Positions 1 to 50,126 of a stretch of 64,000 nt of DNA are shown here, in pieces. The position numbers and the translations under genes are program-made. The stretch lies in NCBI GenBank assembly GCA_964369365.1, contig CAYJES010000004.1:1682-65681 (forward strand), given 5' to 3'. Under the pieces are notes generated by a model, which worked only from the letters and a program-made list of their open reading frames with translations, was not told the DNA's origin and searched no databases. Position 1 is the stretch's first letter. Each line of letters begins with the position of its first letter. The DNA comes from an uncultured Lactobacillales bacterium (lineage in GTDB: Bacteria > Pseudomonadota > Alphaproteobacteria > CAYJES01).

Positions 1-383
1 CTATCTTTTATTTTTGATTTTTTCCTATCTTCAATTATACCTTCAAGTCTTTGCAACCAGTTATTTTTGTTTTTATAATTATCAGAAAAACAAGAAATTT
101 CCCCTGTATGACAAGTTGGTCCCATAGGATTTACCCTAACCAACAATGCATCTTTATCACAATCATATCCAATGTTCACCAACTCCAAAAAATTTCCCGA
201 AGTTTCTCCTTTGAACCATAACTTTTGCCTTGACCTAGAAAAAAAATATGCTTTTTTTGTTGCGAGTGTGGCTTCCAGCGCTTCTTTATCCATATATCCC
301 AACATTAAAACTTCCATAGTATTTTCATTTTGAATAATCGCTGGCACCAAACCTGAAAAATCGAACTTCACTTCATCTATCAT
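1..383 (-). CDS. hisIE: HisIE, bifunctional phosphoribosyl-AMP cyclohydrolase / phosphoribosyl-ATP pyrophosphatase; N-terminal part only, gene runs off the left window edge
   Basis: Not in the ORF track because it is open at the window edge. My translation of the minus strand from ATG 383-381 gives MIDEVKFDFSGLVPAIIQNENTMEVLMLGYMDKEALEATL..FFSRSRQKLWFKGETSGNFLELV..DCDKDALLVRVNPMGPTCHTGEISCF. That is the HisI signature, followed by the start of a HisE-like segment. ATGA start/stop overlap with hisA. Confidence 0.85.
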   Translation of the reverse strand, partial: MIDEVKFDFSGLVPAIIQNENTMEVLMLGYMDKEALEATLATKKAYFFSRSRQKLWFKGETSGNFLELVNIGYDCDKDALLVRVNPMGPTCHTGEISCFSDNYKNKNNWLQRLEGIIEDRKKSKIKD

Positions 384-1126
384 GAGTTTCCTCCTTTTTT
401 TTCAAATAGGTATTGGGTTTCTTTTATATCAATATTTCCTTCCAGCAATGCTTTGCCCACGATTACCCCATGACAACCTATTTTGGATAACATTACTAAA
501 TCATCTAGGCTATTTACTCCGCCAGATGCTTGGACTTTTACATCAAATTGCCTTAACACATCTTCATAAAGTTTAAAGTTCGGACCACTCAGCGCTCCAT
601 CTTTACTGATGTCAGTGATTAAATATTCGATATTTCTGTATTTTTTATAGATATCAATTGCCTCAAACAAATCTGTTTGCGAGTTTTTTTGCCATCCATG
701 AGTTGCTATTTTCCACCCATCTAAGAATCTAACATCTAATGAAATTACAAACCTATCTTCGCCAAATTCATCAATCCAATTTTGCACCATTTCTGGGCTC
801 TTTACTGCCAAAGAACCGATAACTACCCTATTTATACCATTATCAAATAATTTTTTAACCGCTTCTTTATCCCTTATTCCCCCACCTGTTTGAATAGGCA
901 GTTGCGAAAACTTTGCTATATCAATAATAAAATCTTTTTGATTACCGACACCAGGATCTTTTGCCCCATCTAAATCAACAATGTGAATCATCTTCATCCC
1001 ATTTTGCTGGTAATGATTGATTAAATCTACAGGACTATGATTATATTTTGTTTGATTATTAAAATCGCCTTGAAACAACCTTACCACTTCATTTTTTCTT
1101 AAATCTATTGCTGGAATTATTTTCAT
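380..1126 (-). CDS. hisA: HisA, ProFAR isomerase
   Basis: 248 aa. IIPAIDLRKNEVVRLFQGD, IHIVDLDGA, IQTGGGIR, RVVIGSLAV and QASGGV...GVIVGKAL match the HisA barrel and phosphate-binding motifs. 4-nt overlaps with both neighbours. Confidence 0.9.
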   Translation of the reverse strand: MKIIPAIDLRKNEVVRLFQGDFNNQTKYNHSPVDLINHYQQNGMKMIHIVDLDGAKDPGVGNQKDFIIDIAKFSQLPIQTGGGIRDKEAVKKLFDNGINRVVIGSLAVKSPEMVQNWIDEFGEDRFVISLDVRFLDGWKIATHGWQKNSQTDLFEAIDIYKKYRNIEYLITDISKDGALSGPNFKLYEDVLRQFDVKVQASGGVNSLDDLVMLSKIGCHGVIVGKALLEGNIDIKETQYLFEKKGGNS

Positions 1127-1737
1127 AAAACCTCCTTTATTATTTGTTTGATTTCTTTTACCTTTAAATAAACGTCATTTTCAATTTCGCTTTCATCCAG
1201 TAATTCAGTAAAAAAGCTTAATAGAATATTACTTTTATTGTCTTCCGCGATATTTCTCCTTACCTCCATATCATCTTCTAGCTTTTTATAAGAACTTAGC
1301 CCTGATGCCTCGTTTAACATCCCTTCGCGCCTTGCTATCACTGTATTAATGCCTGTGTCCATGAAAATTGTCGGAAACTTATATTTATCCCAAATCTTAA
1401 GCTGTTTTTCCTTTTCTTCATCACTGGCATTTGCCCCCATAACTGTGCATATTCCAGTAATCCAACCGCGATCAAATATTATTAAATCTTTATTCAAATT
1501 GCTTTTTATAACTTCATCAATATAAGAAGTAACTATATTGGTAACGATAGTACTTCCTTGCTCATTTTGACTTAGGGTATACGTTGTTTCACAACCGATA
1601 TATTCACTTGGAAATTTCGCAACAACATCCCTGAACGGAGCCGCTATCACAATATTTTGAGTTTTCTTTTCAAGCAAAGCAATTAATGTAGATTTTCCAG
1701 CGCCTTTTTGTCCTTCTATACAAATTATTTTAACCAT
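1123..1737 (-). CDS. P-loop nucleoside/nucleotide kinase-like protein (thymidylate-kinase-like fold), substrate unknown
   Basis: 204 aa. N-terminal Walker A ICIEGQKGAGKSTL resembles Tmk IEGxDGAGKST, and IIFDRGWITG sits where the Tmk DR(Y) motif lies. Overlaps both neighbours, implying translational coupling. Confidence 0.55.
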   Translation of the reverse strand: MVKIICIEGQKGAGKSTLIALLEKKTQNIVIAAPFRDVVAKFPSEYIGCETTYTLSQNEQGSTIVTNIVTSYIDEVIKSNLNKDLIIFDRGWITGICTVMGANASDEEKEKQLKIWDKYKFPTIFMDTGINTVIARREGMLNEASGLSSYKKLEDDMEVRRNIAEDNKSNILLSFFTELLDESEIENDVYLKVKEIKQIIKEVL

Positions 1738-3415
1738 TGTTTACTCCTAATAATTCAGCCATAATTTTCCATTTTTTATAAGTATTATTTTTAGATCTTT
1801 CCTTAAATACTTTTATATATTCTGGATTATCCCCTATATAATCTAATGTTCCCATCTGATCAGGCGATACCTCTGCACACAATACATCTCCGCCTTTATT
1901 TAAAAAGAAACATGCATCATAAATAGTCAAATCAAATTTATTAAGATATTTTCTTATTTCTATAAAAGCCTTTAAAACTGTCTGCTTTGCTTGCTCAGTA
2001 TCTATAAATCTACTAGCCAACCCTTCTGGCACCATTACATCTTCATGCGGGTTGCTTTGACGCCAATCAAATCGCACATACGGGGCATGCTCTTCCTTTT
2101 CATCCATAAGGTTTGGATACGTATGCTTGCTTGAACCAATGAATGCTGCCTTTACAATAACTTCTAATTGACTAGCTGCGTTCTCTTTTGTCATCAAAAT
2201 ATAATTTTTGTACGTAGCAAGTGTTGACGTATTTACACCCTTTTTTTTTAAATAATCTGATAAATGCTGATTTATCTGTGCCCGCAACAAATGTGTCTTT
2301 GGGGCACTTATTGCCTTTTTTTCAACAAATGAGTAAATAGTTGGGTTAAGCTTGCCTATTAATAAATCTGGATGATTTGATATTTCTCTTAATTGTCTGC
2401 TATCACCATTATGGAACAATTTTAATTTTTTGTATCTTTTCACATTGTCTAAAAGAATTTTTTGTAATCCCGCTAGTTCCGTTTTAACTATTTTCGGCAT
2501 TTGCAAAATAGGTAAATTTTCATTTGAACAAATTACATCTTTAAAAAAAACAATCGCAAAAGAAGGAGTTTTACCAAACAAATTCCCTGGGGTTAAATGT
2601 CCACACCCTCCCATTAATTGATAAAGCTGATTTTCACAAACACCTTTAAAACAAGGTTGTTTCTTTAAATAATCAATAGCATTATCAAAAGCATTCTTCA
2701 TTGACGAATTAATATCATTTCCTGTTCCCACTATAACTATTTGAGAACTGGTTTCAATAATAGGGTAATCAACCTTTTCACATGCAAAGGCTTGCAACTC
2801 TACTGTTGCATCTGCTTCTAGTGCTAGACCAGAGGTTTCTCCATTTGCTTGCCTAAAGTGGACATCTCCTACTCCTAGCAATGCTTTATTGTGACTGTGG
2901 GGTAAATAAATAATTGTTCCTTTATGAAGCTGTGCAAAATCCAAATTACCTCCATATTTTGAACACCTGCCCCCACGCATTGGAACATCATTAATAGTGG
3001 ACATATAACCAATACTTGGTCTAGGCGAAATATATGCATACTCATTAATTTTAATCCGCCCTGCGTCGTCTGGGATATAAATATGAGGATTTCTTACCTT
3101 AACATCATCTTTTTTAAATCCAGTGCTGTATGAATTACATTGATAAATCGCTTTTATTTCAATATCACATATTCGCACAGCAATTGATTGATTTTTTCCA
3201 ACGCCTTTTATCCATATAGGCCCAACACAAGGATGGTTTGATTTTTCTTTTTCAGGGCTATTCATAAAATCATCAAACTCTTTCACTGTTGAAAAAGATT
3301 TGCCAAAGCTGTTTCCTATTTCTATTTTAAACTTATCTCCTGCTCTCACTTCTCCTATAGGAATAGTTGACAGAGTATTTACTGATTTTTTCATATTAAA
3401 TATTTTATTTTGCAT
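1730..3415 (-). CDS. Fusion protein: N-terminal acetamidase/formamidase-family domain plus C-terminal divergent SAICAR-synthetase (PurC)-like domain
   Basis: 561 aa. N-terminal half: HPCVGPIWIKGV and GGNLDFAQLHKGTIIYLP..ALLGVGDVHFRQANGETSGLALEADA match FmdA/AmdA-family motifs. C-terminal ~260 aa: GDSRQLREI, KKKGVNT, LEVIVKAAFIGSSKH and DLTIYDACFFLNKGGDVLCAEVSPDQMGTL parallel PurC GKAKTVY / GIPTQ / VECVVRN.AAGS / LVDFKLEFG..VLGDEFSPDGSRLW. Confidence 0.6.
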   Translation of the reverse strand: MQNKIFNMKKSVNTLSTIPIGEVRAGDKFKIEIGNSFGKSFSTVKEFDDFMNSPEKEKSNHPCVGPIWIKGVGKNQSIAVRICDIEIKAIYQCNSYSTGFKKDDVKVRNPHIYIPDDAGRIKINEYAYISPRPSIGYMSTINDVPMRGGRCSKYGGNLDFAQLHKGTIIYLPHSHNKALLGVGDVHFRQANGETSGLALEADATVELQAFACEKVDYPIIETSSQIVIVGTGNDINSSMKNAFDNAIDYLKKQPCFKGVCENQLYQLMGGCGHLTPGNLFGKTPSFAIVFFKDVICSNENLPILQMPKIVKTELAGLQKILLDNVKRYKKLKLFHNGDSRQLREISNHPDLLIGKLNPTIYSFVEKKAISAPKTHLLRAQINQHLSDYLKKKGVNTSTLATYKNYILMTKENAASQLEVIVKAAFIGSSKHTYPNLMDEKEEHAPYVRFDWRQSNPHEDVMVPEGLASRFIDTEQAKQTVLKAFIEIRKYLNKFDLTIYDACFFLNKGGDVLCAEVSPDQMGTLDYIGDNPEYIKVFKERSKNNTYKKWKIMAELLGVNNG

Positions 3416-4277
3416 AGTTTTTCATTGCCTCCGATAATTTTGCATAACTGTCAAAAATTTGATTTACTGGTTTTTCATGTCTGAATAAGTCCTTAGTTAA
3501 TGAGTTTCCTTCTTTATCTCTTATCCTAGATGAATCTTGAGTATATTCATCAGCAACGACAATCTCTCTTGAATTATCTCCTATAAAAAATCCTGCTTCA
3601 AACTTGCCATCTTCCAATATCCAATCTTGGGACTTTAAAAACTCTGATAAATATTGATTAACTTTGACGGTCAAACTATATAACTCTTCATACTCTTCTT
3701 TATTTTTTAACATTCTACCCTTTAGATGTTCATCTTTAGCATATTTATCAAGGGCAATTATCATATCTAAATTCACCCTTGGATCATCTTTGATTTCTTT
3801 TTCAGGAAGCACTAGTTTAGGAGATATTTTTTTAAGCAAAGAATGGATATGCTTGTTTGTCCGTGAAAGTTGTTGATATGGCAAATAATCAGTTTCATTT
3901 TTCCATTTCACACAAAATTCAACAACAGGAGTATCAAACATTACCCCGCCGTCTAGTAGTGGAATTTTATGGCTATCCACCCAATGTCCGCGCGATACAT
4001 ACCTTGAAATTAATTCCAAAGGAATCATATCCATTTTTTTAACAACTATTCCTTTTTCCTTAAGTGCATCATTTCCTGCTAAATGTGTTTTAATTCCTTG
4101 TTTTTCTAAAAATCTATAGAAATAATAACAAAATTCTTCACGCAGCCTTCCACTCCCTGGAATTGTATCTATTTTACCTCTGCCATGTAATAAATCTTTG
4201 AACACAACAAGCAATTCATCTTCTTTTTCAGTCAAATAAAAATCTTTACTTGAACCTGCAATAACTATCTCTGACAT
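3405..4277 (-). CDS. SAICAR-synthetase (PurC)-family protein, stand-alone
   Basis: ORF 3405..4349 trimmed to ATG 4277, 7 nt after a GGAG. GSSKDFY, EKQGIKTHL, VVKKMDMIPLELISRYVSRG, ILEDGKFEAGFF and REIVVADEYTQDSSRIRDKEG line up with canonical PurC motifs. Confidence 0.75.
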   Translation of the reverse strand: MSEIVIAGSSKDFYLTEKEDELLVVFKDLLHGRGKIDTIPGSGRLREEFCYYFYRFLEKQGIKTHLAGNDALKEKGIVVKKMDMIPLELISRYVSRGHWVDSHKIPLLDGGVMFDTPVVEFCVKWKNETDYLPYQQLSRTNKHIHSLLKKISPKLVLPEKEIKDDPRVNLDMIIALDKYAKDEHLKGRMLKNKEEYEELYSLTVKVNQYLSEFLKSQDWILEDGKFEAGFFIGDNSREIVVADEYTQDSSRIRDKEGNSLTKDLFRHEKPVNQIFDSYAKLSEAMKNYAK

Positions 4278-4279
4278 TT

Positions 4280-5152
4280 TCATTCTCCTTTCTTTTGATA
4301 AAACAACATATTCGGAGTGTAAATTTCTATCCCAACCTCTTCCACACATTCATAAAGTTCCTTCAATAACTTTGATAGCTTTGACGTTTTACAGAAAAAT
4401 TCGAACCTTTCGGCAACCGTTTTTCTCAATTTAAAAGTAATAAGATTTTCATGGTATTTTTTGTATATTTCTAGAAATCTATATTCTGATTTTTCAGGAA
4501 CATGACAAACCAATCTTCGTGCAGTTTTTGCATGAGTATAAGCAACTAAACTTTCTTTGATAAAGTCAATTTCTTTTTTATGAGCCTCGCTCAGACCCTT
4601 TCTTGCAACCAGCACAGGATGAGCATGCTCAATATCTTCTATTATTTCAAGGTTATTAGCGCGCAAAGATGCTCCTGTTTCACAAACATCAACAATACCT
4701 TTTGCAAGTTCAAGCGCAGGATATGCCTCAACGGCTCCAGAAACTTTTAAAATTTTAACACCTTTGATGCCCTTATTTTCAAAAAACTTTCTAGTGATTT
4801 CTGGATATGAGGTTGCGATTACCTGATTTTCAAAATCAGCCAAGACAACTCCTTTAGGAGCAGCCAATACCATTTTATGACAGCCAAAATCAAAATCAAA
4901 AATTATATCTAAGTCACTGCTATGTTCTGTTAACATATTAGTAGTTGTGATACCAATATCAATACCCTTAGATTCAAGACAAAGAGGAATTTCACGACAA
5001 CGTATATAGATTATTTTTAAATCTTTCCAACGTTCAGCGTAACCTACGTTATATCTTTCAGACCTAACAAGAGGAATTTCAGATTCTTTAAAAATATTAG
5101 AAATAGTATGATACATACGATCATTAGTTGGAATGCCAATTTTCAATTGCAT
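4280..5152 (-). CDS. hisG: ATP phosphoribosyltransferase, long form (HisG with C-terminal regulatory domain)
   Basis: ORF 4280..5245 trimmed to MQLKIGIPTNDRM (ATG 5152, GGAG 9 nt upstream); the 31 codons upstream read through the repeated leader. IRCREIPLCLESKGIDIGITTTNML, ATSYPEITRKFFENKGI and AVEAYPALELAKGIVDVCETGASLRANNLE are HisG motifs. Confidence 0.85.
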   Translation of the reverse strand: MQLKIGIPTNDRMYHTISNIFKESEIPLVRSERYNVGYAERWKDLKIIYIRCREIPLCLESKGIDIGITTTNMLTEHSSDLDIIFDFDFGCHKMVLAAPKGVVLADFENQVIATSYPEITRKFFENKGIKGVKILKVSGAVEAYPALELAKGIVDVCETGASLRANNLEIIEDIEHAHPVLVARKGLSEAHKKEIDFIKESLVAYTHAKTARRLVCHVPEKSEYRFLEIYKKYHENLITFKLRKTVAERFEFFCKTSKLSKLLKELYECVEEVGIEIYTPNMLFYQKKGE

Positions 5153-5158
5153 TTTTTT

Positions 5159-5216
5159 CTCCTTTAGCAGAAAGGTTAAAAGCTTGTCTCGGACTGCCCC
5201 CTCAAGACCCAAGCCT
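5159..5216 (-). promoter_or_regulatory. Structured 5' leader, copy A, upstream of hisG; contains the SD
   Basis: 57/58 identical to 6458-6515. RNA sense: AGGCUUGGGUCUUGAGGGGGCAGUCCGAGACAAGCUUUUAACCUUUCUGCUAAAGGAG. Two hairpins with complementary loops; the second pairs with the AAAGG of the SD. Confidence 0.55.
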
Positions 5217-5268
5217 TGCCTGTTAGAGCATTTGAGAAAAAACACTCTAACAGGACATTTTTTTTATA

Positions 5269-6450
5269 TTAGTTACTAGGATTTTCAGCTAGATAGTTAT
5301 CGAAATAACCTTTTATTAAAATCACAGGAGTTCCCTTGTCCCCAGAACCAGAAGTCAAGTCACACAAAGATCCAACAAGGTCAGTAATTTTTCTAGGAGT
5401 TGTTCCCAAAGAATAAGCATCGCCTTCTATTTCCTTATTTCCAATAGCATCTATTATTGCTTGGTGTGGGTTTTGAGTATTGTTATCAGCAACGGCTTTA
5501 ATCTTAATTTCCTTAGGCATTCCAGACAATCCATCAGTATGACCAGGGGAAACAACAGGATCAGCAAATTCCCAAATATGAGTAGCTGGACATTTAAAAC
5601 CGCCATCTCCATATACTAAAACTTCTATTTTTTTGCCAGTTTTCTCTAGCATTTTTTGTTGCAATTGTTTACAAAAATCTTTTGCATTACGAGGAAATAA
5701 TTTTAATGTATTTTCAGTAGAATAGTTAGAGCCAAGCAATCCATACTCACTCCAGCCCCTTTGAGAGCTTTCTGATTTACAAATTTCATCCAAAGCAATA
5801 ACTTTTGCTCCTAATTTTTCTAGCAAGCTTTTATGATAAAAACGTTTGTGAATACTAGACACAACGACTTGATTTGCATATTTTAATACATCTCTTGGGT
5901 TATTTAACATTACAACTTCGATATTAGGATTTACATCTTGATACATCTTAGCATAATCAGCTCCTGTAATAGGATGATGAAACTCGCCAAACTTTTCACG
6001 CATTTCATCTGCTGTCATTATATCTTGATACGGATTAACATCACTAGCCAATAACTTAGCTTCGTCCATAACTGCATTTCCAACTTCATCATCAGGAAAC
6101 GACAAACAAACATAAACTTTGCCCTTCACGCCTCTTGCGATACCTTCTAGGATTTTTGCAAACCTATTACGACTTAAAATAGGAAAAGCAACTGCAACAT
6201 CACCTTCTGGAAATGCGCCAGAAACCTCAGCAGCAACATCGTCCAATGTTACATAGTTTTTTTGTGAACGAGCAAGTAAAGACTCTGTTACACCAATAAT
6301 ATCTCTGTCGTTAAAGCTAAAAGGTTGGTATTCAGACTGGGACGCTTTTATTAATTCATCTGAAATAATATCTATAATATTTGCACCAGCATTAATGATT
6401 GGCATACGCACTCCATAAACAGAAGTACCCACTAAACGAATGTTTTTCAT
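5269..6450 (-). CDS. CofE-family (F420-0:gamma-glutamyl ligase-like) amide ligase with a large internal insertion
   Basis: 393 aa. DRDIIGVTESLLARSQKNYV, YGLLGSNYS, KTGKKIEVLVYGDGGF and SGSGDKGTPVILIKG parallel CofE GDVLVV.S.V.SKAEGR / NAGIDASN / TGK.VGVIITDT.GR / GEGGDGIP.VVVRG. About 130 extra residues lie between the first two motifs. Confidence 0.6.
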   Translation of the reverse strand: MKNIRLVGTSVYGVRMPIINAGANIIDIISDELIKASQSEYQPFSFNDRDIIGVTESLLARSQKNYVTLDDVAAEVSGAFPEGDVAVAFPILSRNRFAKILEGIARGVKGKVYVCLSFPDDEVGNAVMDEAKLLASDVNPYQDIMTADEMREKFGEFHHPITGADYAKMYQDVNPNIEVVMLNNPRDVLKYANQVVVSSIHKRFYHKSLLEKLGAKVIALDEICKSESSQRGWSEYGLLGSNYSTENTLKLFPRNAKDFCKQLQQKMLEKTGKKIEVLVYGDGGFKCPATHIWEFADPVVSPGHTDGLSGMPKEIKIKAVADNNTQNPHQAIIDAIGNKEIEGDAYSLGTTPRKITDLVGSLCDLTSGSGDKGTPVILIKGYFDNYLAENPSN

Positions 6451-6457
6451 TCTTTTT

Positions 6458-6515
6458 CTCCTTTGGCAGAAAGGTTAAAAGCTTGTCTCGGACTGCCCCC
6501 TCAAGACCCAAGCCT
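6458..6515 (-). promoter_or_regulatory. Structured 5' leader, copy B, upstream of the CofE-like gene; contains the SD
   Basis: 57/58 identical to 5159-5216. Same two-hairpin fold. Preceded (RNA sense) by an unrelated hairpin CCCAC-GAGUU-GUGGG at 6517-6531. Confidence 0.55.
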
Positions 6516-6537
6516 ACCCACAACTCGTGGGAATTTT

Positions 6538-7062
6538 TTACTTAATCATATTTTTATCAATCAAGTCATAATTTTCATTATGAACAAATTCTTTCCATCT
6601 TTGGTCTTTGAATGCAATCATGTCACGCACCATAGAACCAGAAAGAAAAGGAAAATCTTGTGTTGTTCTATCGCACAACCTGAAATTAGGGATAATCGAT
6701 CGAAAAGGTTCATACTCTGCGTCTATACCACCGTAAAAAACATCAGGCGCTATATCAATTTTTCGCTCTTGCATTATTTGATTAACCACATTTTGCGGCC
6801 ATGCCCACAAGTTTGTATCATTATCGACCCCTAATATCCATAACCTTTGATACTCTGGTTTATCGCGATACACATTTTGCACCATTTTTTTTCTTATAAA
6901 ATAAGGAAGGGGATTGTCTTTTGTTCCTGTTTCATTTGCATGGTTAATAACAACCGACACAATATCACATTCATCAAACATTTGATTTATTATACGTCCG
7001 TGACCAATATGAAAAGGTTGCGCACTTATAATAGCAAATCCATGTTTATATTTTTGTTCCAT
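6538..7062 (-). CDS. Nucleotidyltransferase of the cytidylyl/adenylyltransferase superfamily, NMN adenylyltransferase-like
   Basis: 174 aa. GFAIISAQPFHIGHGRII is the (H/T)xGH motif and SGSMVRDMI is the ISSTxxR-like C-terminal motif. Size is typical of archaeal-type or NadR-type NMNAT. Confidence 0.65.
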   Translation of the reverse strand: MEQKYKHGFAIISAQPFHIGHGRIINQMFDECDIVSVVINHANETGTKDNPLPYFIRKKMVQNVYRDKPEYQRLWILGVDNDTNLWAWPQNVVNQIMQERKIDIAPDVFYGGIDAEYEPFRSIIPNFRLCDRTTQDFPFLSGSMVRDMIAFKDQRWKEFVHNENYDLIDKNMIK

Positions 7063-7185
7063 AAAAAAATCTCCTTCAAATTATCAAAAAGGAGAGCAAA
7101 CGAATCGCTTGTCATATACAAGCATAAGAGACGGCGACTAACCTTTTTGTGCTTCTGTCCATAGTCCTCGAACACCAAAGCAACT
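7063..7185 (-). promoter_or_regulatory. Long structured 5' UTR of the NMNAT-like gene, with an SD-sequestering helix
   Basis: RNA-sense hairpins: 7150-7182 (UGCUUU-GG-UGUUC / GGACA-GAAGCA) and 7107-7123 (GCUUGU/ACAAGC). The anti-SD UCUCCUU (7089-7095) pairs with the SD AAGGAGA (7070-7076). Unusually GC-rich for this genome. Confidence 0.45.
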
Positions 7186-7188
7186 ACC

Positions 7189-7217
7189 AATCTATATATA
7201 TTTTATTTTCTTGTCAA
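7189..7217 (-). promoter_or_regulatory. Sigma70-like promoter of the his-like operon
   Basis: Minus strand TTGACA (7217-7212), 17-nt spacer, TAGATT (7194-7189). Lies just downstream of the stop of the preceding gene (7226). Confidence 0.5.
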
Positions 7218-7225
7218 TAACTTTT

Positions 7226-7630
7226 TTATTCACGACCATTTATTTGATTAGGCAAATACCGTGCAAGCAAAGGCAAAACCTTGCTTTTTGTCTGAGGATA
7301 ATATTTTTGCATTGTCTCATACGCATTCAATGGCTTGTCTGATTTTGTATATCTTGCACATTCCCAATCAATAATCATTTGTGTATAATCTTTTTCATTT
7401 TTTTCAATGTTGTTTTCAAGGTGATGCCTGCTGTTCGCACGATGGATCTTGCTAATCTCCTTAGGATTTAGCCAAAAACATAAAGCAAGCATAAATATCT
7501 TATCAACATCATGCAAATAACCATCAATTGTATTTTTTCCCAACAATTCTTTTTCAACACATAAAAAAGCTTTTTTATGTTTAAATATTGTTTTTATTTT
7601 TTCATAATTGCTAATCATTCCATACCTCAA
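7226..7630 (-). CDS. DUF5662-like small protein with His/Asp motifs
   Basis: 134 aa. GYLHDVDKIF, HRANSRHHLEN and IIDWECA resemble the HDxSK ... NRHHxE ... pattern I associate with DUF5662. Confidence 0.4.
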   Translation of the reverse strand: MRYGMISNYEKIKTIFKHKKAFLCVEKELLGKNTIDGYLHDVDKIFMLALCFWLNPKEISKIHRANSRHHLENNIEKNEKDYTQMIIDWECARYTKSDKPLNAYETMQKYYPQTKSKVLPLLARYLPNQINGRE

Positions 7631-43182: not shown

Positions 43183-44210
43183 ACCATTAATCCTTTTTCT
43201 TTTCGTTTATACAAAAGTAATGAAATTTTTGCTAACGCAGAACTGAACACAAATATTTGAACTGCTATTACCCCTAATGCAACCATTAAAAACATATAAA
43301 TATCTCTTATATATATATCTAATAAATCAATCGTAATTTTAGTTGTAATTGCTAATATATAAAGATAACTTAAAGTAGCTATAATAACCAATGCATTATA
43401 TTTAGGATATTTAGAGTAATAAAACCAAGAAAATAATATTGCAATAACAGCAAAAAACAGAACTTCAAATGACATAATTTCACCAAGACACACTCTATAC
43501 ATTGCCACCGCTAATGCAGATATAAAGCTTATCAACAACAAAAACATCCACAAATAAAACCTTCTTTTCTTTAGAAATAAATCAGTCATAACCTCTACTG
43601 CCACCAATAAAGCAAGGTTAAAAACACAAAGAGATAGCAATAAATATTGCCATGTAATGACCCCATTTGATATACCGTATTGATAACCCCACAAAACAAC
43701 AGCATAATTAATAAGAGACACCAAAAAACACCACAAAAGCGAACTTCTTAAACAAAGAGCCCACAAAATGAACAAAGCCGCCCATTCAGTATACATAGAC
43801 CAGCTTTCTCCTATTAAAGGATACCTCATATTTATAATATATAACATTAATCCAATATTAAAAATAGCAGCCACGATAAATAGCCTGCCTACTATTTTTC
43901 TGGTTCCTATAAAATGACTAGCAACGACAGAGACAATAAACAACAATTGACACAGCAATATTTTATAAAAAAATTGATAACTATCCCAATTTGTATAGAA
44001 ATAATTAAAGGCACTATAAAAAATAGAAATTACAGCAAAAATCATAAATGTAACGTAAAACATTTTATTCCAATAACGAGCATCCTTCATTAACGATAAT
44101 GCATTTAAAAAGTCCTTAGACCTTAAAATCCCAAGTTTGCAAAGTCCTCTTAACCCATCTGGGGTTGCAGGACTATCCAACCTTAATTTTGCTTTATTAA
44201 ATAAATCCAT
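43179..44210 (-). CDS. Polytopic membrane protein, DUF2157-like
   Basis: 343 aa. Short soluble N-terminus, then about 9 TM helices. First gene of the trio, with overlapping stops and starts. Confidence 0.45.
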   Translation of the reverse strand: MDLFNKAKLRLDSPATPDGLRGLCKLGILRSKDFLNALSLMKDARYWNKMFYVTFMIFAVISIFYSAFNYFYTNWDSYQFFYKILLCQLLFIVSVVASHFIGTRKIVGRLFIVAAIFNIGLMLYIINMRYPLIGESWSMYTEWAALFILWALCLRSSLLWCFLVSLINYAVVLWGYQYGISNGVITWQYLLLSLCVFNLALLVAVEVMTDLFLKKRRFYLWMFLLLISFISALAVAMYRVCLGEIMSFEVLFFAVIAILFSWFYYSKYPKYNALVIIATLSYLYILAITTKITIDLLDIYIRDIYMFLMVALGVIAVQIFVFSSALAKISLLLYKRKEKGLMV

Positions 44211-44325
44211 TTCAAACTTTCATAATTTTTACCATAATTATAATAAACAACAGTTATAAAAACGCAAGAGAGAAATTGCATCCTCTCAATTTTGCAACAT
44301 TATCACAATCATTCTCTGAGTTTTT

Positions 44326-44410
44326 TCAAAAATCCCGCGAATGAAGGGATTAATAGGATATAAGGAAAATCCCAAGGAAGTGTACTATAGATACATGACC
44401 GAAGGGATTT
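44326..44410 (-). terminator. Tandem terminator-like hairpins; the first (44364-44410) is copy 2 of the palindromic element at 7823-7869
   Basis: Minus strand AAAUCCC...GGGAUUU (44410-44364), then AAUCCC-UUCAUUCGC-GGGAUU (44351-44331) followed by UUUGAAAAAA. Lies downstream of the FlhB-C-like gene. Confidence 0.5.
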
Positions 44411-44430
44411 ACCCGCAACATCCGCAGTAA

Positions 44431-44724
44431 TCACCCATTATATGAATTTTTCAATTCTGCGTTTTGCTTATATATGTAAGAAAGGATTTCAGCAACTGCT
44501 GAAAATGCTTCTATTGGGATTTCTGAGTTCAAGTCAATCGCTTCTAGGATTTGAACTAAATCGCTATCTTCTTTTATAGGGATATCGTTGCCTATTGCAA
44601 GCTCTTTTATTTTATCTGCAATATATCCTTTGCCCTTTGCTACAACTTTAGGCGCATTATCATTTTCTTGGCTGTATTTCAGAGCAACAGCTTTTTGCGT
44701 TAACTTTTTATTCATAATTGGCAC
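44431..44724 (-). CDS. Stand-alone FlhB C-terminal-domain-like protein (EscU/YscU/HrcU family fragment)
   Basis: 97 aa. KAVALKYSQENDNAPKVVAKGKGYIADKIKELAIGNDIPIKEDSDLVQILEAIDLNSEIPIEAFSAVAEILSYIY matches the FlhB region after the NPTH autocleavage site. Confidence 0.75.
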   Translation of the reverse strand: MPIMNKKLTQKAVALKYSQENDNAPKVVAKGKGYIADKIKELAIGNDIPIKEDSDLVQILEAIDLNSEIPIEAFSAVAEILSYIYKQNAELKNSYNG

Positions 44725-44774
44725 ACCTTTTGCAATATATATTTTCAGATTAATTTTATTATAGGATAAAACAA

Positions 44775-45221
44775 ATGGATTTGCAAAACATAACTTTATT
44801 TAAAATGGCTAACAAAAGTATGCAGTGGGCTAATCAAAGGCAAAAAGTTGTATCTCAGAATATTGCCAACATTAACACACCTGACTACAGACCTTCTGAA
44901 TTAAAACCAGTTTCTTTTGCAAGAGAACTTAACCAAAAAAAGACAGTTATGGCAGTTACAAATCCATCTCATCGCACTGAAGAATCTGTTAATGTTTCTA
45001 TGCAAACTAGGGCTGGAGGTCATATCCCATCTAAATACAGGCCTGAATCTTTCCGCACTTACGAAAACAGAAAAAGTTATGAAACTTCACTAGACGGTAA
45101 CGGCGTAGTATTAGAAGAAGAAAGCATGAAATTATCAGAAAACAGATCAATGCATGACAGAGCAGTAACAATTTATTCAAAATACAACTTGATGCTTCAA
45201 ACATCACTTGGTCAACAATAA
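44775..45221 (+). CDS. flgB: Flagellar proximal rod protein FlgB
   Basis: 148 aa. Rod N-terminal motif VVSQNIANINTPDY. Immediately upstream of flgC. Confidence 0.85.
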   Translation: MDLQNITLFKMANKSMQWANQRQKVVSQNIANINTPDYRPSELKPVSFARELNQKKTVMAVTNPSHRTEESVNVSMQTRAGGHIPSKYRPESFRTYENRKSYETSLDGNGVVLEEESMKLSENRSMHDRAVTIYSKYNLMLQTSLGQQ

Positions 45222-45245
45222 TATATATAGGGAGAGTAAAATAAA

Positions 45246-45656
45246 ATGGACGCACTAAAAGCAAGCTCTACAATCGCAGTATCGGGAATGAAAGCACAAG
45301 CAACAAGATTACGTACAATTTCACAAAATATGGCTAATGCGGATAACACAGCGACAAAGCCAGGTGGAATTCCTTATCGCAGGCAAGCGGTTACTTTCAT
45401 AAATGTGTTTGACCCAAAAATTGGTGCAGATGTTGTAAAAGTAGGTAGCGTAGTTAAAGATATGTCACAAATGCAACGCGAATATGATCCAAACAGCCCA
45501 GCCGCAGACGACCAAGGCTACGTTTTAAAACCAAACGTACAAATTCCAATTGAACTTATGGATATGAAAGAAGCGGAAAGAAGTTATGAAGCAAACCTCA
45601 ACGCATATTCAACTGCAAAAGATATGAATTCAAGAACTCTTGAAATGCTAAAATAA
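45246..45656 (+). CDS. flgC: Flagellar proximal rod protein FlgC
   Basis: 136 aa. RLRTISQNMANADNT and C-terminal GYVLKPNVQIPIELMDMKEAERSYEANL. Confidence 0.9.
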   Translation: MDALKASSTIAVSGMKAQATRLRTISQNMANADNTATKPGGIPYRRQAVTFINVFDPKIGADVVKVGSVVKDMSQMQREYDPNSPAADDQGYVLKPNVQIPIELMDMKEAERSYEANLNAYSTAKDMNSRTLEMLK

Positions 45657-45672
45657 TTAACATAACAACAAA

Positions 45673-45707
45673 ACAGCCCTAACTATAAAACCGTAGGGCT
45701 GTTTTTT
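45673..45707. terminator. Bidirectional intrinsic terminator
   Basis: ACAGCCCTA...TAGGGCTGT followed by T6 on plus and by TTTTGTTGTT on minus. Confidence 0.75.
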
Positions 45708-45721
45708 AATGCAAATCATTA

Positions 45722-46960
45722 TTAAGCTTTTGTATGTGTCATTTTATCCAAAACAAGTCTAGCTTGAATTTTTTTATAAATACCATCTATATCTTTATTT
45801 TTTATATCTTTTTGAGAAATTGTTAAATGCTTAGAAAGAATTTTTATAACATCATCAATTTCTTTATCTGATGCACCAAAAGGGTTAATATTAAATTTAT
45901 CTTTTAGTATATTAAGCCCATCAACAACATGCTTTATTGTTTTATCATCTTCAACATGACTTAATATAGTTTTATACAACTTCATATCAATATCTCCTTT
46001 TGCCAAGGCAAGAGAAGCTGTTTCAATAGGTTTATATTCATCAAAATCTCTCATCTCCATTCCAAGAGATACTAATTTTTCAATCTTTTCTCCATCATTA
46101 TCATCAACAGCTTCTTTGAACCTGTACAAGAAAGCTGCTCTTTCAACATTTTTCAAACTTTCTAATTGAGATGCTTCCAAAATTTTTAACAGTTTATCAT
46201 CAGCAATAGATTCACGCAAAATTGCAGCAAGTTTAAATTCGTCTAAATTAAGAGTATCTTTTACATCTTTTAACTCCTCATCAAAATCATTCAAAGCGTC
46301 TTGCTTGTTTTCAATTAACTCTTCCATATCTTCTACTTTTTCTTCCCAAAATTCTTCTATCAAATCTTCTTGCTTTTCTTTGATAGAAGCCATTTCCTCA
46401 GAAAAAGTCCAACGAGTTATATCAAGCTCTTCTATCACATAATCGTTTCGTAAAAACTGAGCATTTAACTCTTCTTTCATAGGAACAATAACTTTTTCGT
46501 CACCTACAAGCATTTTTTCAACCCCATATATATAAGGAGTGTTATCAGAATAATAATCATCTACTACTTCAAATAAATTTTCCATTTTTTCAGTATCGAT
46601 ATTTTTCATATCAATATTATGCTGACTGTTAATAGAGTTACTCCAGATCATAAGATTAATTGGACTGATATTACCATATTGTCTTGTAGCATTCCATTTA
46701 TCAAAATCATCGCCCCATTTAATTTTAGATTTTTTCCAAGACTTTGCCTTTCCAGAAAAAGCTTTTGATTTCACAGCTGAACCAATTTTCCCGACTTTTA
46801 CAGATGAACCGCCAAATTTAGCTCCTCCTGACGAACGACTAACACTAACCCTTGCACCCTTTGCATCTGCATCGTGCACATCTACGCTTACGGCTGCGCC
46901 ACTTAATAATGATGTCATTCCAGCTATTACCGAAATTTTTTTCAAAATTTTCTTATCCAT
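45722..46960 (-). CDS. Hypothetical secreted protein, acidic and helical
   Basis: 412 aa. Signal-peptide-like MDKKILKKISVIAGMTSLLSGAAVSVDVHDADA, a basic Gly/Ser/Lys-rich stretch, then a Glu/Asp/Lys-rich helical region. No family recognised. Confidence 0.6.
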   Translation of the reverse strand: MDKKILKKISVIAGMTSLLSGAAVSVDVHDADAKGARVSVSRSSGGAKFGGSSVKVGKIGSAVKSKAFSGKAKSWKKSKIKWGDDFDKWNATRQYGNISPINLMIWSNSINSQHNIDMKNIDTEKMENLFEVVDDYYSDNTPYIYGVEKMLVGDEKVIVPMKEELNAQFLRNDYVIEELDITRWTFSEEMASIKEKQEDLIEEFWEEKVEDMEELIENKQDALNDFDEELKDVKDTLNLDEFKLAAILRESIADDKLLKILEASQLESLKNVERAAFLYRFKEAVDDNDGEKIEKLVSLGMEMRDFDEYKPIETASLALAKGDIDMKLYKTILSHVEDDKTIKHVVDGLNILKDKFNINPFGASDKEIDDVIKILSKHLTISQKDIKNKDIDGIYKKIQARLVLDKMTHTKA

Positions 46961-47122
46961 TAACCCTATCCTTTCAATTTAATATTTTATAAATAATTAA
47001 CATAAACTATATCTCCGCATTCCAATTTTGTCAATATTTTTTTTAGAAATTTAATTTGCAAAACAGTTAATAATTTGTTACAATCTGCAATAGTTATTTA
47101 AAAAACAACAAGGAATTTAATT

Positions 47123-47476
47123 GTGGCAATTGACATAAACTCGGCTTTAAATGCTTATAACATGTCTCTTAATAGAGCTAAAAAATCTATTAATACTGGG
47201 GTTGTCGATTCTGAATTAAAAGCAATTACTCCTGTTAAACCTGTTAATTCTGATGATGACAATTCTTTTTACGGAATTATAAAACAATCAGTGCAAAGAG
47301 CAGAATCAATCAACAGAAAAGCAGAAGATTTATCAAAGCTAGCTATTGCAGGTCAAGCAGACATGAGAGAGGTCGCCTTGGCTGTGACCCAAGCAGAAAC
47401 TTCACTTAAAACTATTATCGGAATGAGGGATAAATTCCTTACTGCTTACAAAGAAATCCTTAATATGCCAATGTAA
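47123..47476 (+). CDS. fliE: Flagellar hook-basal body protein FliE
   Basis: 117 aa, GTG start. C-terminal DMREVALAVTQAETSLKTIIGMRDKFLTAYKEILNMPM matches the FliE signature. Confidence 0.8.
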   Translation: MAIDINSALNAYNMSLNRAKKSINTGVVDSELKAITPVKPVNSDDDNSFYGIIKQSVQRAESINRKAEDLSKLAIAGQADMREVALAVTQAETSLKTIIGMRDKFLTAYKEILNMPM

Positions 47477-47576
47477 TTGGATTATTTTATTAAGAAAGCT
47501 TAGAACTATCTTTTTACTTGATAGTTTTTTTTATTTTATTACAATACCAATAACTTAAAATTTGTTGAGAATAATA

Positions 47577-48434
47577 ATGAACAATACAAACACAAAAAAA
47601 AGAATTTTAAAATATACATTCCGCACTTTGCGCGTTCTTTTAATCGCACTTGTTATATATCTTATTATGTTGTTTTTTGCACAAAAAGCGATAATTTATC
47701 CTGGTGCATTTTTTGACAACCCTAATTTATCTGAAAATACTGTACTACAACTTGAACCTATCAACTTAAAATCAACAGACAACAACCCTGTTTTACTTTA
47801 TAAATTGGCAGGCAAAAAAGAAAACAATAAAGCACTATTGATATTTCACGGAAATGCGGACAGCGCCACAAACATTATGAACCGCTTATATAATCCATAT
47901 GTTTTACACAATGGTTATGACATATATGGTATAGAATATAGAGGATTTCAAGGAATGCCGGGGCTTCCATCAGAAGAAACTTTACTAGAAGATAGCAAAA
48001 CTGTTTTAAATTATATAAAAGAGCAAAAAAAATACGAAACACTTGTTTATTATGGACATTCATTGGGGACTGGGATTGCAGTTAATTTGGCAGGTTATTA
48101 TATCCCAGACGGATTGGTGCTAGAGGCCCCGTTTTCTTCGCTAAAAGATATGGCAAGCTCACTTTATCCATTTATTCCAAGAATGTTAATCAATTTAATG
48201 GTTGTGGAAAGTTACGATTCGTTTAAAACACTACAAACAATCGAAGTCCCTAACTTATTAATTTTAAATGCAAAAGACGATCATGTAATCCCTTACAAAC
48301 AAGGTCAATCATTATATGACATTGCAATATCTCCGAATAAAATATTCAAAAGTTATGATAAAGGTGGACACAGCGATATCTATCTCTTCAATGACACCAG
48401 CACTTTACGTGATTTTTTACTTAAGATAAATTAA
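47577..48434 (+). CDS. Alpha/beta-fold hydrolase with an N-terminal membrane anchor
   Basis: ORF trimmed to ATG 47577. FHGNADS, nucleophile elbow YYGHSLGTGIA, NAKDDHVIPY, GGHSD. Confidence 0.7.
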   Translation: MNNTNTKKRILKYTFRTLRVLLIALVIYLIMLFFAQKAIIYPGAFFDNPNLSENTVLQLEPINLKSTDNNPVLLYKLAGKKENNKALLIFHGNADSATNIMNRLYNPYVLHNGYDIYGIEYRGFQGMPGLPSEETLLEDSKTVLNYIKEQKKYETLVYYGHSLGTGIAVNLAGYYIPDGLVLEAPFSSLKDMASSLYPFIPRMLINLMVVESYDSFKTLQTIEVPNLLILNAKDDHVIPYKQGQSLYDIAISPNKIFKSYDKGGHSDIYLFNDTSTLRDFLLKIN

Positions 48435-48454
48435 TTATAAAAAGGTTATTATAA

Positions 48455-49948
48455 ATGTTTAACTCGCTTTCAAATCGTTTAGGAAAAGTTTTTGATTCTC
48501 TTGCTAGACGTGGAATTTTAACAGAAACCATGGTTGATGAGGCTATGCGCGAAATTCGTATAGCATTATTAGAAGCTGATGTTTCATTGCCCGTTGTAAA
48601 AGAATTCGTTGCAAAGGTAAAAGAACAAGCGATAGGCGAAAAAGTAATAAAAGCAATCAAACCATCTGAACAAGTTGTTAAAATCGTACACGATGCCTTG
48701 ATTGAGACTTTGGGTGGCGACCACTCAGAACTAAGCTTTAACACCAATCCCCCATCAATTTATATGATGTTAGGATTACAAGGTTCTGGTAAAACGACAT
48801 CTTCTGCTAAACTTGGTAAATTTTTACAAGACAAACAAAACAAAAAAGTTTTAACTGCATCTGTTGATATATACAGGCCAGCAGCAAAAGAACAACTAGC
48901 AATTGCATGTAAATCTGCTGGTGTAGACTGCGTTGATATTGTGGAAAACGAAAAACCACTTGCAACAGTAAAGCGTGCGCTTAATCAAGCAAAAATCGAA
49001 GGATATGATGTTTTGATCATCGATACAGCAGGAAGGTTGCAAATCGACAATGAATTGATGAATGAGTTAAAAGAATTAAAAACCTTTTTAAATCCGATAG
49101 AATCTTTATTAGTAGCAGACAGTTTAACAGGTCAAGAAGCAGCAAACATCGCAAAAACTTTTAACGAAGAAATCGGTCTTAGCGGTATTATTTTAACCAG
49201 AATAGATGGTGATGGCCGTGGCGGTGCTGCGCTTTCTATGAAATCTATTACTGGCAAACCTATTAAATTCATTGGTACAGGTGAAAAGGTATCGGATTTT
49301 GAAATCTTTTACCCAAAACGTTTGGCAGGCAGAATTTTGGACATGGGTGATGTGGTTTCATTGGTTGAAAAAACCATGGAAAACCTAGACCATGAACAAG
49401 CGGAAAAAACAGCCAAAGCAATGCTAAAGGGCAAATTCACGCTGGAAGATATGCTAGCACAATTAGGTCAAATGCAAAAAATGGGAGATTTAAGTAGTAT
49501 CGTTGGGATTTTACCTGGCGCGTCTAAGATAAAAGATAAACTAGCTAGCGCAAACATTGATGACAGAATGATAAAACGTCAAGAAGCAATAATTTTATCA
49601 ATGACTATTAAAGAACGTAGAAACCCAGATATAATAAAAGCAAAACGAAAAATCAGAATAGCAAATGGCTCAGGCGTCCAAGTCCAAGACGTAAACAAAC
49701 TTTTAAAACAATTCGATCAAATGAAAGACATGATGAAAAAAATGAAATCAGGTGGGTTATTCGGCAAATTGCTTGGCGGAATGGGTGGCATGGGCGGAAA
49801 AATGCCTGACATGTCTGCACTTTCAGATATGAAAGGAATGGGAGATATGTCTATACTTGAAAATATGAACCCAAATGCCCTACCCGATTTTGATAAATTA
49901 AAAGATATGGATTTTTCAAAAATGGGGCTACCATTTAACAAGAAATAA
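48455..49948 (+). CDS. ffh: Signal recognition particle protein Ffh
   Basis: 497 aa. GLQGSGKTTSSAKL, DTAGRL, LTRIDGDGRGGAALS, and a Met-rich M domain with a GGMGGMGGKMPDM tail. Confidence 0.95.
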   Translation: MFNSLSNRLGKVFDSLARRGILTETMVDEAMREIRIALLEADVSLPVVKEFVAKVKEQAIGEKVIKAIKPSEQVVKIVHDALIETLGGDHSELSFNTNPPSIYMMLGLQGSGKTTSSAKLGKFLQDKQNKKVLTASVDIYRPAAKEQLAIACKSAGVDCVDIVENEKPLATVKRALNQAKIEGYDVLIIDTAGRLQIDNELMNELKELKTFLNPIESLLVADSLTGQEAANIAKTFNEEIGLSGIILTRIDGDGRGGAALSMKSITGKPIKFIGTGEKVSDFEIFYPKRLAGRILDMGDVVSLVEKTMENLDHEQAEKTAKAMLKGKFTLEDMLAQLGQMQKMGDLSSIVGILPGASKIKDKLASANIDDRMIKRQEAIILSMTIKERRNPDIIKAKRKIRIANGSGVQVQDVNKLLKQFDQMKDMMKKMKSGGLFGKLLGGMGGMGGKMPDMSALSDMKGMGDMSILENMNPNALPDFDKLKDMDFSKMGLPFNKK

Positions 49949-49950
49949 AC

Positions 49951-50126
49951 TAGAGAGTTTAACGTTTATATTGTTTATTTTTTTATGAAGGATTTTAATT
50001 TTTGATTTTTGCTTTTTTATGAGGGCTAGCGCCCCTAACCGAAGAGAAAAGCAATAGAGCAAAAATACTCTAAAAAACGATTATAAAACTATTCAATATA
50101 ATCGTTATACTCTCTAATAAAAAAGG
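49951..50126. repeat. 176-bp element bounded by 23-nt imperfect terminal inverted repeats (MITE-like or long structured 3' UTR)
   Basis: 49951-49973 TAGAGAGTTTAACGTTTATATTG versus the reverse complement of 50104-50126, 21/23 match. Internal GC-rich hairpin GGGC-TAGC-GCCC flanked by TTGCTTTT/AAAAGCAA, and a 10-bp palindrome AACGATTATA/TATAATCGTT. Confidence 0.5.

Follow-up and report, generated by a model that had tools for sequence, protein, structure and literature searches.

Why should two consecutive cistrons of one operon, coding for HisG and a CofE-like protein, open with almost the same leader? The question is posed by a 64-kb stretch of DNA (hereafter the window; GC content ~32%) on contig CAYJES010000004.1 of an uncultured bacterium placed among the Alphaproteobacteria (assembly GCA_964369365.1). 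We call the repeated leader element B, and a second leader motif, found upstream of the first gene of the same operon, motif A. Comparison of the copies collected here indicates that B is a conserved, structured mRNA element. With a probability that we put at roughly 55%, it is a new riboswitch-type switch that turns translation OFF, i.e., a candidate class.

A repeat search of the window recovered a 63-nt direct repeat (5154-5216 vs 6453-6515; 62/63 identical), which encloses the two 58-mers that the initial annotation had reported as 57/58 identical. The sole mismatch, A5166 vs G6465 on the plus strand, reads U vs C in the RNA. A 25-nt core of B occurs exactly twice in the 64 kb, even allowing three mismatches, and in none of 100 shuffles; the GC content of the element is ~50%, against 32% for the window. 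Both copies stand in sense orientation on the minus (coding) strand, as do all genes in the region of interest, which make up one operon from a promoter-like site at 7217-7189: NMNAT-like, CofE-like, HisG, PurC-like, formamidase/PurC-like fusion, P-loop kinase-like, HisA and the start of HisI(E). Each copy ends in AAAGGAG, 6-7 nt ahead of an ATG, that of HisG (5152-5150) for copy 1 and that of the CofE-like gene (6450-6448) for copy 2. As had also been seen initially, the flanks and downstream genes of the two copies bear no relation to each other, and a different hairpin precedes each (5219-5254 and 6517-6531).

Near-identical copies amid unrelated flanks, and the different gene modules that stand behind B in different genomes, would suit a repeat operating at the DNA level: an element resembling repetitive extragenic palindromes or miniature inverted-repeat transposable elements (REP/MITE), a recombination or cassette junction of the attC kind, or a duplication scar without RNA function. 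The distribution of B makes such an origin very improbable. We scanned 185,579 species-representative genomes with a pattern fixing P2, the inner helix of the fold given below, and part of its loop; 35 of the resulting 39 loci are true, the other four being false matches without the 3' half. All 35 come from metagenome-assembled genomes (MAGs) of animal or human gut or rumen, nearly all of them labelled Alphaproteobacteria. A protein-anchored look-up by CofE-like homologues (67-71% amino acid identity), independent of the DNA pattern, gave further loci with B, and a metagenome scan with P2 left free added six more; altogether B is present in ~40 related MAG or metagenome loci. One copy is seen per examined locus (3-11 kb of each genome; 3-8 kb for the 35 pattern matches), always with one orientation and at one place of the operon, behind the NMNAT-like gene and ahead of the next cistron (a gap of ~90 nt to the CofE-like gene in the metagenome loci) and at a fixed distance from the Shine-Dalgarno (SD) sequence and the ATG. 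Behind B, most loci have a CofE-like gene; HisG takes this place in the window (copy 1) and in the related loci L045 and L055, and a DUF5662-like gene where the CofE-like gene is deleted. Homologous operons do, then, carry the element, and the scattering that the initial annotation thought might expose it as a dispersed repeat is not what we observe: the covariance model (CM) of B, R1, finds no further copy in ~430-450 kb of examined loci or in the rest of the window, and no match was found in viral contigs or a plasmid collection. Moreover, compensatory substitutions keep the RNA fold, the G·U pairs of which become C·A mismatches on the other strand, and neither an integrase nor an attC consensus is near, the degraded locus L011 being the only one in which B is abutted by a transposase fragment (IS3 type). 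Taken singly, a REP/MITE or other dispersed repeat was rejected since many copies in mixed contexts and orientations would be expected, and an integron attC since no GTTRRRY core is visible, the fold needs mRNA-strand G·U pairs and no integrase is found in the operon neighbourhoods.

B also outlasts the genes around it. In loci of the L019 type, where the CofE-like gene is deleted, it is kept and followed by DUF5662-like, PnuC-like, deoxyribosyltransferase-like and radical-SAM genes, and in L058 it is kept despite deletion of the NMNAT-like gene. At the level of gene order, this retention in rearranged loci is the behaviour of a portable regulatory cassette. CofE-like homologues without an NMNAT-like neighbour (L007, L008, L009 and L059) have neither motif; the L008 protein groups with Synergistaceae-labelled homologues. 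Several loci record operon decay, with the CofE-like gene cut to a short N-terminal remnant in the L019 type (L019:379-445; also L027, L044, L046 and L051) and in L011 (4829-5047, the locus with the transposase fragment), and the NMNAT-like gene deleted in L058 (1762-1920); the RNA motifs are intact in all of these. In L010 (817-4050), two CofE-like paralogues flank the NMNAT-like gene, and B precedes the downstream one only. Two contigs labelled otherwise, L026 (Lachnospiraceae) and L044 (Gastranaerophilaceae), carry the same operon and RNA motifs as the alphaproteobacterial MAGs; L044 has the same sequence as L019, L027 and L046 throughout the element, and both contigs are probably mis-binned.

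What, then, is conserved in B? Structure was counted on 39 unique copies (alignment A4). The consensus comprises an outer helix P1 of 7-8 bp, a 2-nt bulge (GG in 38/39 copies), the 5-bp P2 (UCUUG/CGAGA), a loop of 10-12 nt, an A/U-rich linker variable in length and sequence, and a mini-hairpin in which an anti-SD CCU pairs with the AGG of the SD AAGGAG (CCU/AGG in 38-39 of the 39 copies). The first loop, through GRCAG(U), forms 5-6 Watson-Crick pairs with (A)CUGYC in the second; in consensus the loops read UAGGGACAGU and ACUGUCA, and the first loop is AGGGGGCAGUC in the window. Both hairpins and the GGCAG/CUGCC loop complementarity that the initial annotation had drawn by eye are present as it described them, and the single C-to-U difference does keep the loop-loop pairing, as a G·U that occurs in copy 1 only (columns 23-63). 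Its 5-bp hairpin 2, CCUUU/AAAGG, holds for the window itself, whereas the conserved core is just the 3 bp CCU/AGG; this is lengthened to 4-5 bp via matched extra U and A residues in the window (5 bp), L001 and L055.

The alignment supports this fold strongly at the level of paired change. Paired cells amount to 98.4%, against 32-44% with the partners slid by 1-3 columns, and nine pairs have changes on both sides, a count reached by 0/500 shuffles. Compensatory changes affect 7/13 pairs of P1 and P2, namely six in P1, one of them with five pair types, and the closing pair of P2. Of the loop-loop pairs, that of columns 24-62 is intact in every unique sequence, as A-U in 31 and as G-C in 8; the copies with G-C are spread over three distinct clades when placed on a tree built from the neighbouring NMNAT-like protein, which implies at least three double substitutions. 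Among the copies found through their proteins, L057 has A-U instead of G-C as the closing pair of P1, and that of P2 has changed to A-U in L001 and to G·U in L055; in L058 the U·G of P2 has become U-A and the bulge CG. RNAalifold, unprompted, predicts hairpin 1 and the SD hairpin. As the sixth loop-loop pair, U30-A58, is unpaired in 5/39 copies (the window lineage and L013/L026), we count only five of these pairs as secure. Thermodynamic z-scores of isolated B are unremarkable (+0.6 to +1.0) and single-sequence folding energy lends no support, so that the case rests on covariation. P1 drifts freely in sequence while P2 is invariant: P2 has the same sequence in 6/6 matches of the search that left it free, several of which repeat loci already known. 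This invariance suggests a constraint beyond pairing, as in aptamer cores.

The wobble pairs (U·G and G·U), such as that of columns 17-32 in 38/39 copies, are C·A mismatches on the other strand; being valid on the mRNA strand only, they make the fold specific to that strand. This bears on a further alternative, a small RNA (sRNA) transcribed from the plus strand that would cover the ribosome-binding site (RBS) in antisense and end at the hairpin and T-run past each copy. Read along the plus strand, both flanking hairpins of the window do run into T-runs, and that at 6517-6531 has a terminator score in this direction. However, the T-run is not kept in relatives, the equivalent hairpin of L004 has its terminator score on the sense strand, the wobbles of B would become mismatches in such an RNA, and promoter-like matches are no commoner than in shuffled sequence; we regard an antisense sRNA as highly improbable. 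With respect to these hairpins themselves, both 5219-5254 and 6517-6531 have A-runs ahead of them on the mRNA strand, giving them the look of plus-strand terminators (one is flagged as such), yet no plus-strand gene runs into either. In L004 the U-tract of the hairpin is the P1 5' strand of B, and in relatives the hairpin before B looks like a leaky sense-strand terminator. Intrinsic-terminator flags fall on these separate upstream hairpins and not on B, and in the window they are confined to the opposite strand.

A second line of evidence comes from motif A, upstream of the NMNAT-like gene. Its core includes 7150-7182, which the initial annotation had proposed to treat as a further copy of the repeat; this proposal did not hold, the segment being the core of a different conserved leader of the same layout. 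The CM of motif A, R2, finds it once each in 44/53 sources searched (the window and 43 loci), e.g., at L001:188-307, L004:4261-4380 and L029:7856-7977 and in ~30 other loci. Its consensus consists of P1, an invariant GG bulge, a 5-bp P2, a 9-nt loop GAGGGCWAU, a small hairpin GAC-UUGGCCA-GUC and a variable hairpin, and its 3' end of CCUUUC-GAAA-GAGAGG, U7 and AUG, the last hairpin holding the SD and scoring as an intrinsic terminator. Its covariation is stronger than that of B, with compensatory changes in 7/10 pairs of P1 and P2, and its loop-loop GGC/GCC has changed to GAC/GUC in two lineages (the window and L058), the loop G going to A with the partner C going to U. Because of these two compensatory cases we prefer this pairing between the P2 and P3 loops. 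The loop GAGGGC could instead pair with GCCUUU, the anti-SD strand, in 98%, but as both sides are invariant this alternative has no support and was rejected. Motif A has no match in Rfam 15 and, from its structure, looks like a riboswitch candidate in its own right. A and B share P1, the GG bulge, a 5-bp P2 with a U·G beside the closing pair, the AGGG loop and the pairing of a loop with that of a mini-hairpin further downstream, but not the expression platform; one aptamer layout on different platforms is typical of riboswitches.

Based on these observations, we advance the following mechanism. B would be a structured leader of ~60 nt that acts in cis as a gate on translation of the immediately following cistron. 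The SD mini-hairpin by itself is worth ~-1 kcal/mol in the consensus (-2.7 in the window), and the loop-loop duplex adds ~-6.4 to -8.5 kcal/mol (nearest-neighbour estimate, loop geometry disregarded); given so weak a mini-hairpin and so strong a duplex, occlusion of the SD should depend on the kissing complex. The 3-bp SD hairpin would thus be too weak alone, and the loop-loop complex would hold the SD closed in the OFF state, with the invariant unpaired nucleotides (the GG bulge, AGGG of the loop and the AA before CCU) providing the pocket in which a small ligand would bind and stabilise the complex. In this manner B might be aptamer and expression platform in one piece, acting jointly with motif A upstream of the first gene. 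The candidate ligand, admittedly a guess, would be a nucleotide-like product or intermediate of the NMNAT-like/CofE-like/PnuC-like/HisG pathway, possibly NAD-related. ON instead of OFF logic is possible for B. With regard to what is generally expected of riboswitches, a conserved structure backed by covariation is found in B and in motif A, and an expression platform is recognisable in the sequence of each: in B the anti-SD/SD next to the kissing strand, in A the SD hairpin with U7 and a terminator score.

We also considered a B devoid of signal input, which would impose a fixed lower translation on the distal cistron, insulate its RBS from the upstream open reading frame, or act with the preceding hairpin as a site of RNase processing or mRNA stability. 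B is intercistronic and always follows directly on a stable hairpin, that of L004 scoring as a leaky intrinsic terminator, and the kissing complex is predicted to be fairly stable alone; on the other hand, ~25 unpaired or helix nucleotides are near-absolutely conserved while the flanking proteins of the loci with B are only 51-71% identical, which goes far beyond the needs of a generic tuner. A constitutive B would also sit poorly with the recruitment of the same element ahead of a second, unrelated module and with the classic aptamer-plus-terminator design of its companion, motif A, and we hold it to be quite unlikely. A more serious competitor, if still an unlikely one, keeps the same SD-sequestering fold and replaces the small ligand with a macromolecule, either an autoregulating enzyme of the operon (NMNAT-like, CofE-like or DUF5662-like) or a trans-acting sRNA, B being then a translational operator. 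The invariance of P2 beside a variable P1 would fit sequence-specific recognition of a helix by a protein, B always accompanies the same few genes, and it matches no known riboswitch class. Yet A and B, with the same layout in different sequences, would need two recognition modes or a protein reading shape only; B persists without CofE in the L019 type and without the NMNAT-like gene in L058, so neither protein is strictly needed in cis; and no recognisable RNA-binding domain is present among the operon proteins.

Returning to the ligand-responsive OFF switch that we prefer, several points count against it. The 6-bp kissing complex could form ligand-free, the SD is only half paired, and an intra-operon site right after a hairpin also fits a role in processing or stability. 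Whereas the long stem and the loop-loop contact covary, as the initial annotation expected of the whole element, the SD stem does not: CCU/AGG is invariant, and AGG would be conserved anyway as SD. The distribution is narrow, in one clade of uncultured gut Alphaproteobacteria; the sequences are hence related, and the shuffle statistics overstate their independence. Most of them, besides, were collected by a pattern fixing P2 and part of the loop. The CMs demonstrate no homology of A and B, R2 never matching B and R1 matching one copy of A only (25.6 bits), and we accordingly call the two motifs architecturally parallel. Finally, the ligand of B and its regulatory effect are predictions.

Could B nevertheless belong to a system already described? 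Rfam 15 (4227 models, among them those of all named riboswitch classes, ribozymes and leaders) gave no match anywhere in the window at the gathering threshold. At E ≤ 10, window positions 5100-7250 and the consensus-type locus L004:4200-5010 returned only chance-level matches (the BMV3 pseudoknot on the wrong strand, snoRNAs and traJ_5). The ZTP, preQ1, SAM-II/V, THF-II and guanidine-II/III/IV riboswitches and the pistol, hatchet and twister ribozymes are in none of the E ≤ 10 lists, and a CsrA site was rejected since the window variant, with GGGGGC in its loop, lacks the loop GGA. The initial annotation's failure to match the leader to any known class is borne out: by sequence, structure and model score B falls outside the riboswitch classes compared, and our literature searches found no description of motif A, motif B or the operon.

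The NAD+-II riboswitch (pnuC motif), a ~50-60-nt predicted OFF switch in the 5' untranslated region of pnuC (nicotinamide riboside transporter) genes of Streptococcus, resembles B in its small size, in the succession of P1, internal bulge and second helix, and in a pseudoknot beside or over the RBS (PMC7749635). It is also by gene context the nearest known system, both being associated with NAD-type genes: B has an NMNAT-like gene upstream and, in relatives, a PnuC-family transporter in the same operon. The PnuC-family gene lies 2-3 cistrons downstream in loci of the L006, L019, L057 and L009 types, never directly behind B, and there is none in the window operon. In L009 (7182-11185) and L059 (4256-7179), both without the RNA motifs, the CofE-like gene adjoins a convergent NAD salvage cluster of nadE, pncB, nadD-like and pncA genes, to which L009 adds an NrtR-like regulator; this neighbourhood hints at a link of the CofE-like family with NAD. 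In solved structures of NAD+-II, the P1a terminal loop is variable and the pseudoknot uses the 3' tail. In B, unlike these, the terminal loop is conserved and forms its kissing contact with a second hairpin loop; its taxa are gut Alphaproteobacteria as against Streptococcus, and at E ≤ 10 neither A nor B has a score with the NAD+-II model or any other in Rfam.

In the SD-sequestering H-type pseudoknot riboswitches (preQ1-I/II, SAM-II, SAM-V and SAM/SAH), aptamer and platform are fused, and a hairpin loop pairs with a 3' segment abutting or including the SD to turn translation off. B likewise fuses aptamer and platform and would turn translation off, but it has no sequence or CM match to these classes, and its extra SD/anti-SD mini-stem makes the contact loop-loop rather than loop-tail; moreover, neither the length nor the sequence of its linker is constant, which makes a tail of their A-minor or triplex kind unlikely. 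With guanidine-II (mini-ykkC) and guanidine-IV (mepA; PMC7736828) B has in common two hairpins with paired loops, the complex setting the state of the platform. Both of those classes are ON switches, however, and the loops of guanidine-II are ACGR tetraloops, which B lacks; its own loops close the SD, and there is no Rfam match. Protein-binding operators such as ribosomal-protein leaders and the thrS operator resemble B as conserved structures that occlude the RBS at an internal cistron start, but they mimic the RNA target of the protein and accompany genes for RNA-binding proteins, none of which is evident in the operon of B.

Turning to the origin of the two copies, the locus with the closest HisG (L055; 70% identity) has the order NMNAT-like, hairpin, B, HisG, PurC-like and formamidase/PurC-like, with no CofE, while L045 has NMNAT-like, B, HisG, HisA, HisIE and PurC-like. 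For both window copies the nearest relative is the B of L055 (84.7%), the CofE-linked B of L001 being at 71%; in other loci as well, the sequence of B tracks the host lineage and not the downstream gene. Going by these comparisons, the usual home of B is the NMNAT-like/CofE-like junction, the HisG copy is a lineage-specific recruitment, and the two window copies would have arisen in this lineage by duplication or gene conversion. As both are nearest to L055, and the hairpin before copy 1 has its base in common with that locus, a CofE-like cistron with a copy of the resident B may have come to separate the NMNAT-like gene from a B-HisG module that was already there, or the two copies may have been homogenised by gene conversion. 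Table 1 gives the coordinates of the features.

Table 1. Leader elements, hairpins and genes of the operon, in 5' to 3' order on the coding strand.
Feature	Position in window	Strand	Basis and remarks
Promoter-like site of the operon, TTGACA-17-TAGATT	7189..7217	-	10/12 match; equivalent in L004 at 4229-4256
Motif A, before NMNAT-like gene	7060..7184	-	CM R2 43.9 bits, E 9.5e-8
Motif A core hairpin	7181-7151	-	P1 GCUUU/GAAGC; GG bulge; P2 UGUUC/GGACA; loop GAGGACUAU
Motif A loop partner UAGUC, inside GGUUAGUCGCC	7141-7137	-	Can pair with loop GAGGACUAU; register set by eye; MAFFT alignment scores A20-U only
Motif A SD-sequestering hairpin, CUCUCCUU/AAGGAGA	7096-7070	-	Followed by U7 and ATG 7062-7060
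NMNAT-like nucleotidyltransferase, 174 aa	6538..7062	-	HxGH motif; Pfam CTP_transf_like; weak NCBIfam NMNAT matches below cutoff
Hairpin before copy 2, RNA sense CCCACGAGUUGUGGG	6517..6531	-	Just past NMNAT-like stop codon; terminator score on plus strand only
Element B copy 2, whole, before CofE-like gene	6451..6516	-	P1 5' end to just before ATG; 62/63 repeat; CM R1 62.9 bits, E 3.5e-13; aligned with 37 other unique copies
Copy 2 hairpin 1	6479..6515	-	P1 6515-6509/6485-6479; GG bulge 6508-6507; P2 6506-6502/6490-6486; 11-nt loop AGGGGGCAGUC 6501-6491; minimum free energy fold and RNAalifold consensus
Copy 2 loop strand GGCAG	6493..6497	-	Pairs with CUGCC 6469-6465; duplex estimate -6.8 kcal/mol
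Copy 2 hairpin 2	6458..6474	-	Anti-SD CCUUU 6474-6470; loop CUGCC 6469-6465; AAAGG 6464-6460 overlaps SD AAGGAG 6463-6458; start codon 6450-6448
CofE-like (F420_ligase family) gene, 393 aa	5269..6450	-	Behind copy 2; Pfam PF01996, 2.2e-48; far under CofE equivalog cutoff
16-bp hairpin before copy 1	5219..5254	-	Past CofE-like stop codon; base CCUGU...ACAGG matches hairpin after NMNAT-like gene in L055
Element B copy 1, whole, before HisG	5153..5217	-	62/63 repeat; CM R1 65.9 bits
Copy 1 hairpin 1	5180..5216	-	P1 5216-5210/5186-5180; GG bulge 5209-5208; P2 5207-5203/5191-5187; loop 5202-5192, GGCAG 5198-5194
Copy 1 hairpin 2	5159..5175	-	CCUUU 5175-5171; loop CUGCU 5170-5166; AAAGG 5165-5161 overlaps SD AAGGAG 5164-5159; ATG 5152-5150
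His-like module behind copy 1	1..5152	-	HisG 4280-5152; PurC-like 3405-4349; formamidase/PurC-like fusion 1730-3415; P-loop kinase-like 1123-1737; HisA 380-1126; HisI(E) N-terminus, off window edge

Several of the operon's proteins are themselves unusual. The sole PDB relatives of the NMNAT-like protein are the MJ0541 NMNAT and NadM-Nudix, and HisG of the window type has only three relatives in 5.8 billion proteins. The his-like module (window 1-5152, minus strand; L045:1094-4180; L055:150-3562) is of odd composition: a formamidase/PurC-like fusion, a P-loop kinase-like gene and one or two genes resembling PurC (SAICAR synthetase) stand among those for HisG, HisA and HisI(E), and no HisF, HisH, HisB, HisC or HisD genes were seen in the examined sequence. 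A search for tRNA and tmRNA genes found none. Elsewhere in the window, a 300-nt direct repeat (14574-14873/25819-26118; 71% identical, 11.2 kb apart) is probably paralogous coding sequence. The GC skew is strongly negative from 1 to ~48 kb and positive or neutral thereafter, with the cumulative minimum near 46-48 kb (window ~44000-50000); this turn could mark a replication origin or terminus, or a mere switch in gene orientation.

New riboswitch classes now come mostly from uncultured lineages, and each points to a metabolite worth sensing. The operon described here is bracketed by two covarying RNA motifs, and its enzymes, which include NMNAT-like and CofE-like proteins and HisG/HisIE/HisA wired to PurC-like ligases, fit no assigned pathway. 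We tentatively entertain, at short of even odds, that A and B are two forms of one undescribed kissing-loop riboswitch class sensing a nucleotide-like metabolite of an uncharacterised pathway of gut Alphaproteobacteria. With the same reserve, we would draw that pathway from the NMNAT-like adenylyltransferase, the CofE-like ligase and the DUF5662-like, PnuC-like, deoxyribosyltransferase-like and radical-SAM proteins, with HisG-HisIE-HisA and the PurC-like proteins as an alternative module. The metabolite could be a relative of NAD, or a dinucleotide or cofactor not yet described. A ligand, if found, would name the pathway product in widespread uncultured Alphaproteobacteria of animal guts, and the compact kissing-loop design, uniting aptamer and platform in ~60 nt, would then join the known and engineerable riboswitch architectures. 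In evolutionary terms, the window displays a putative sensor cassette copied ahead of a newly adjoined gene module, an example of how a regulon grows.

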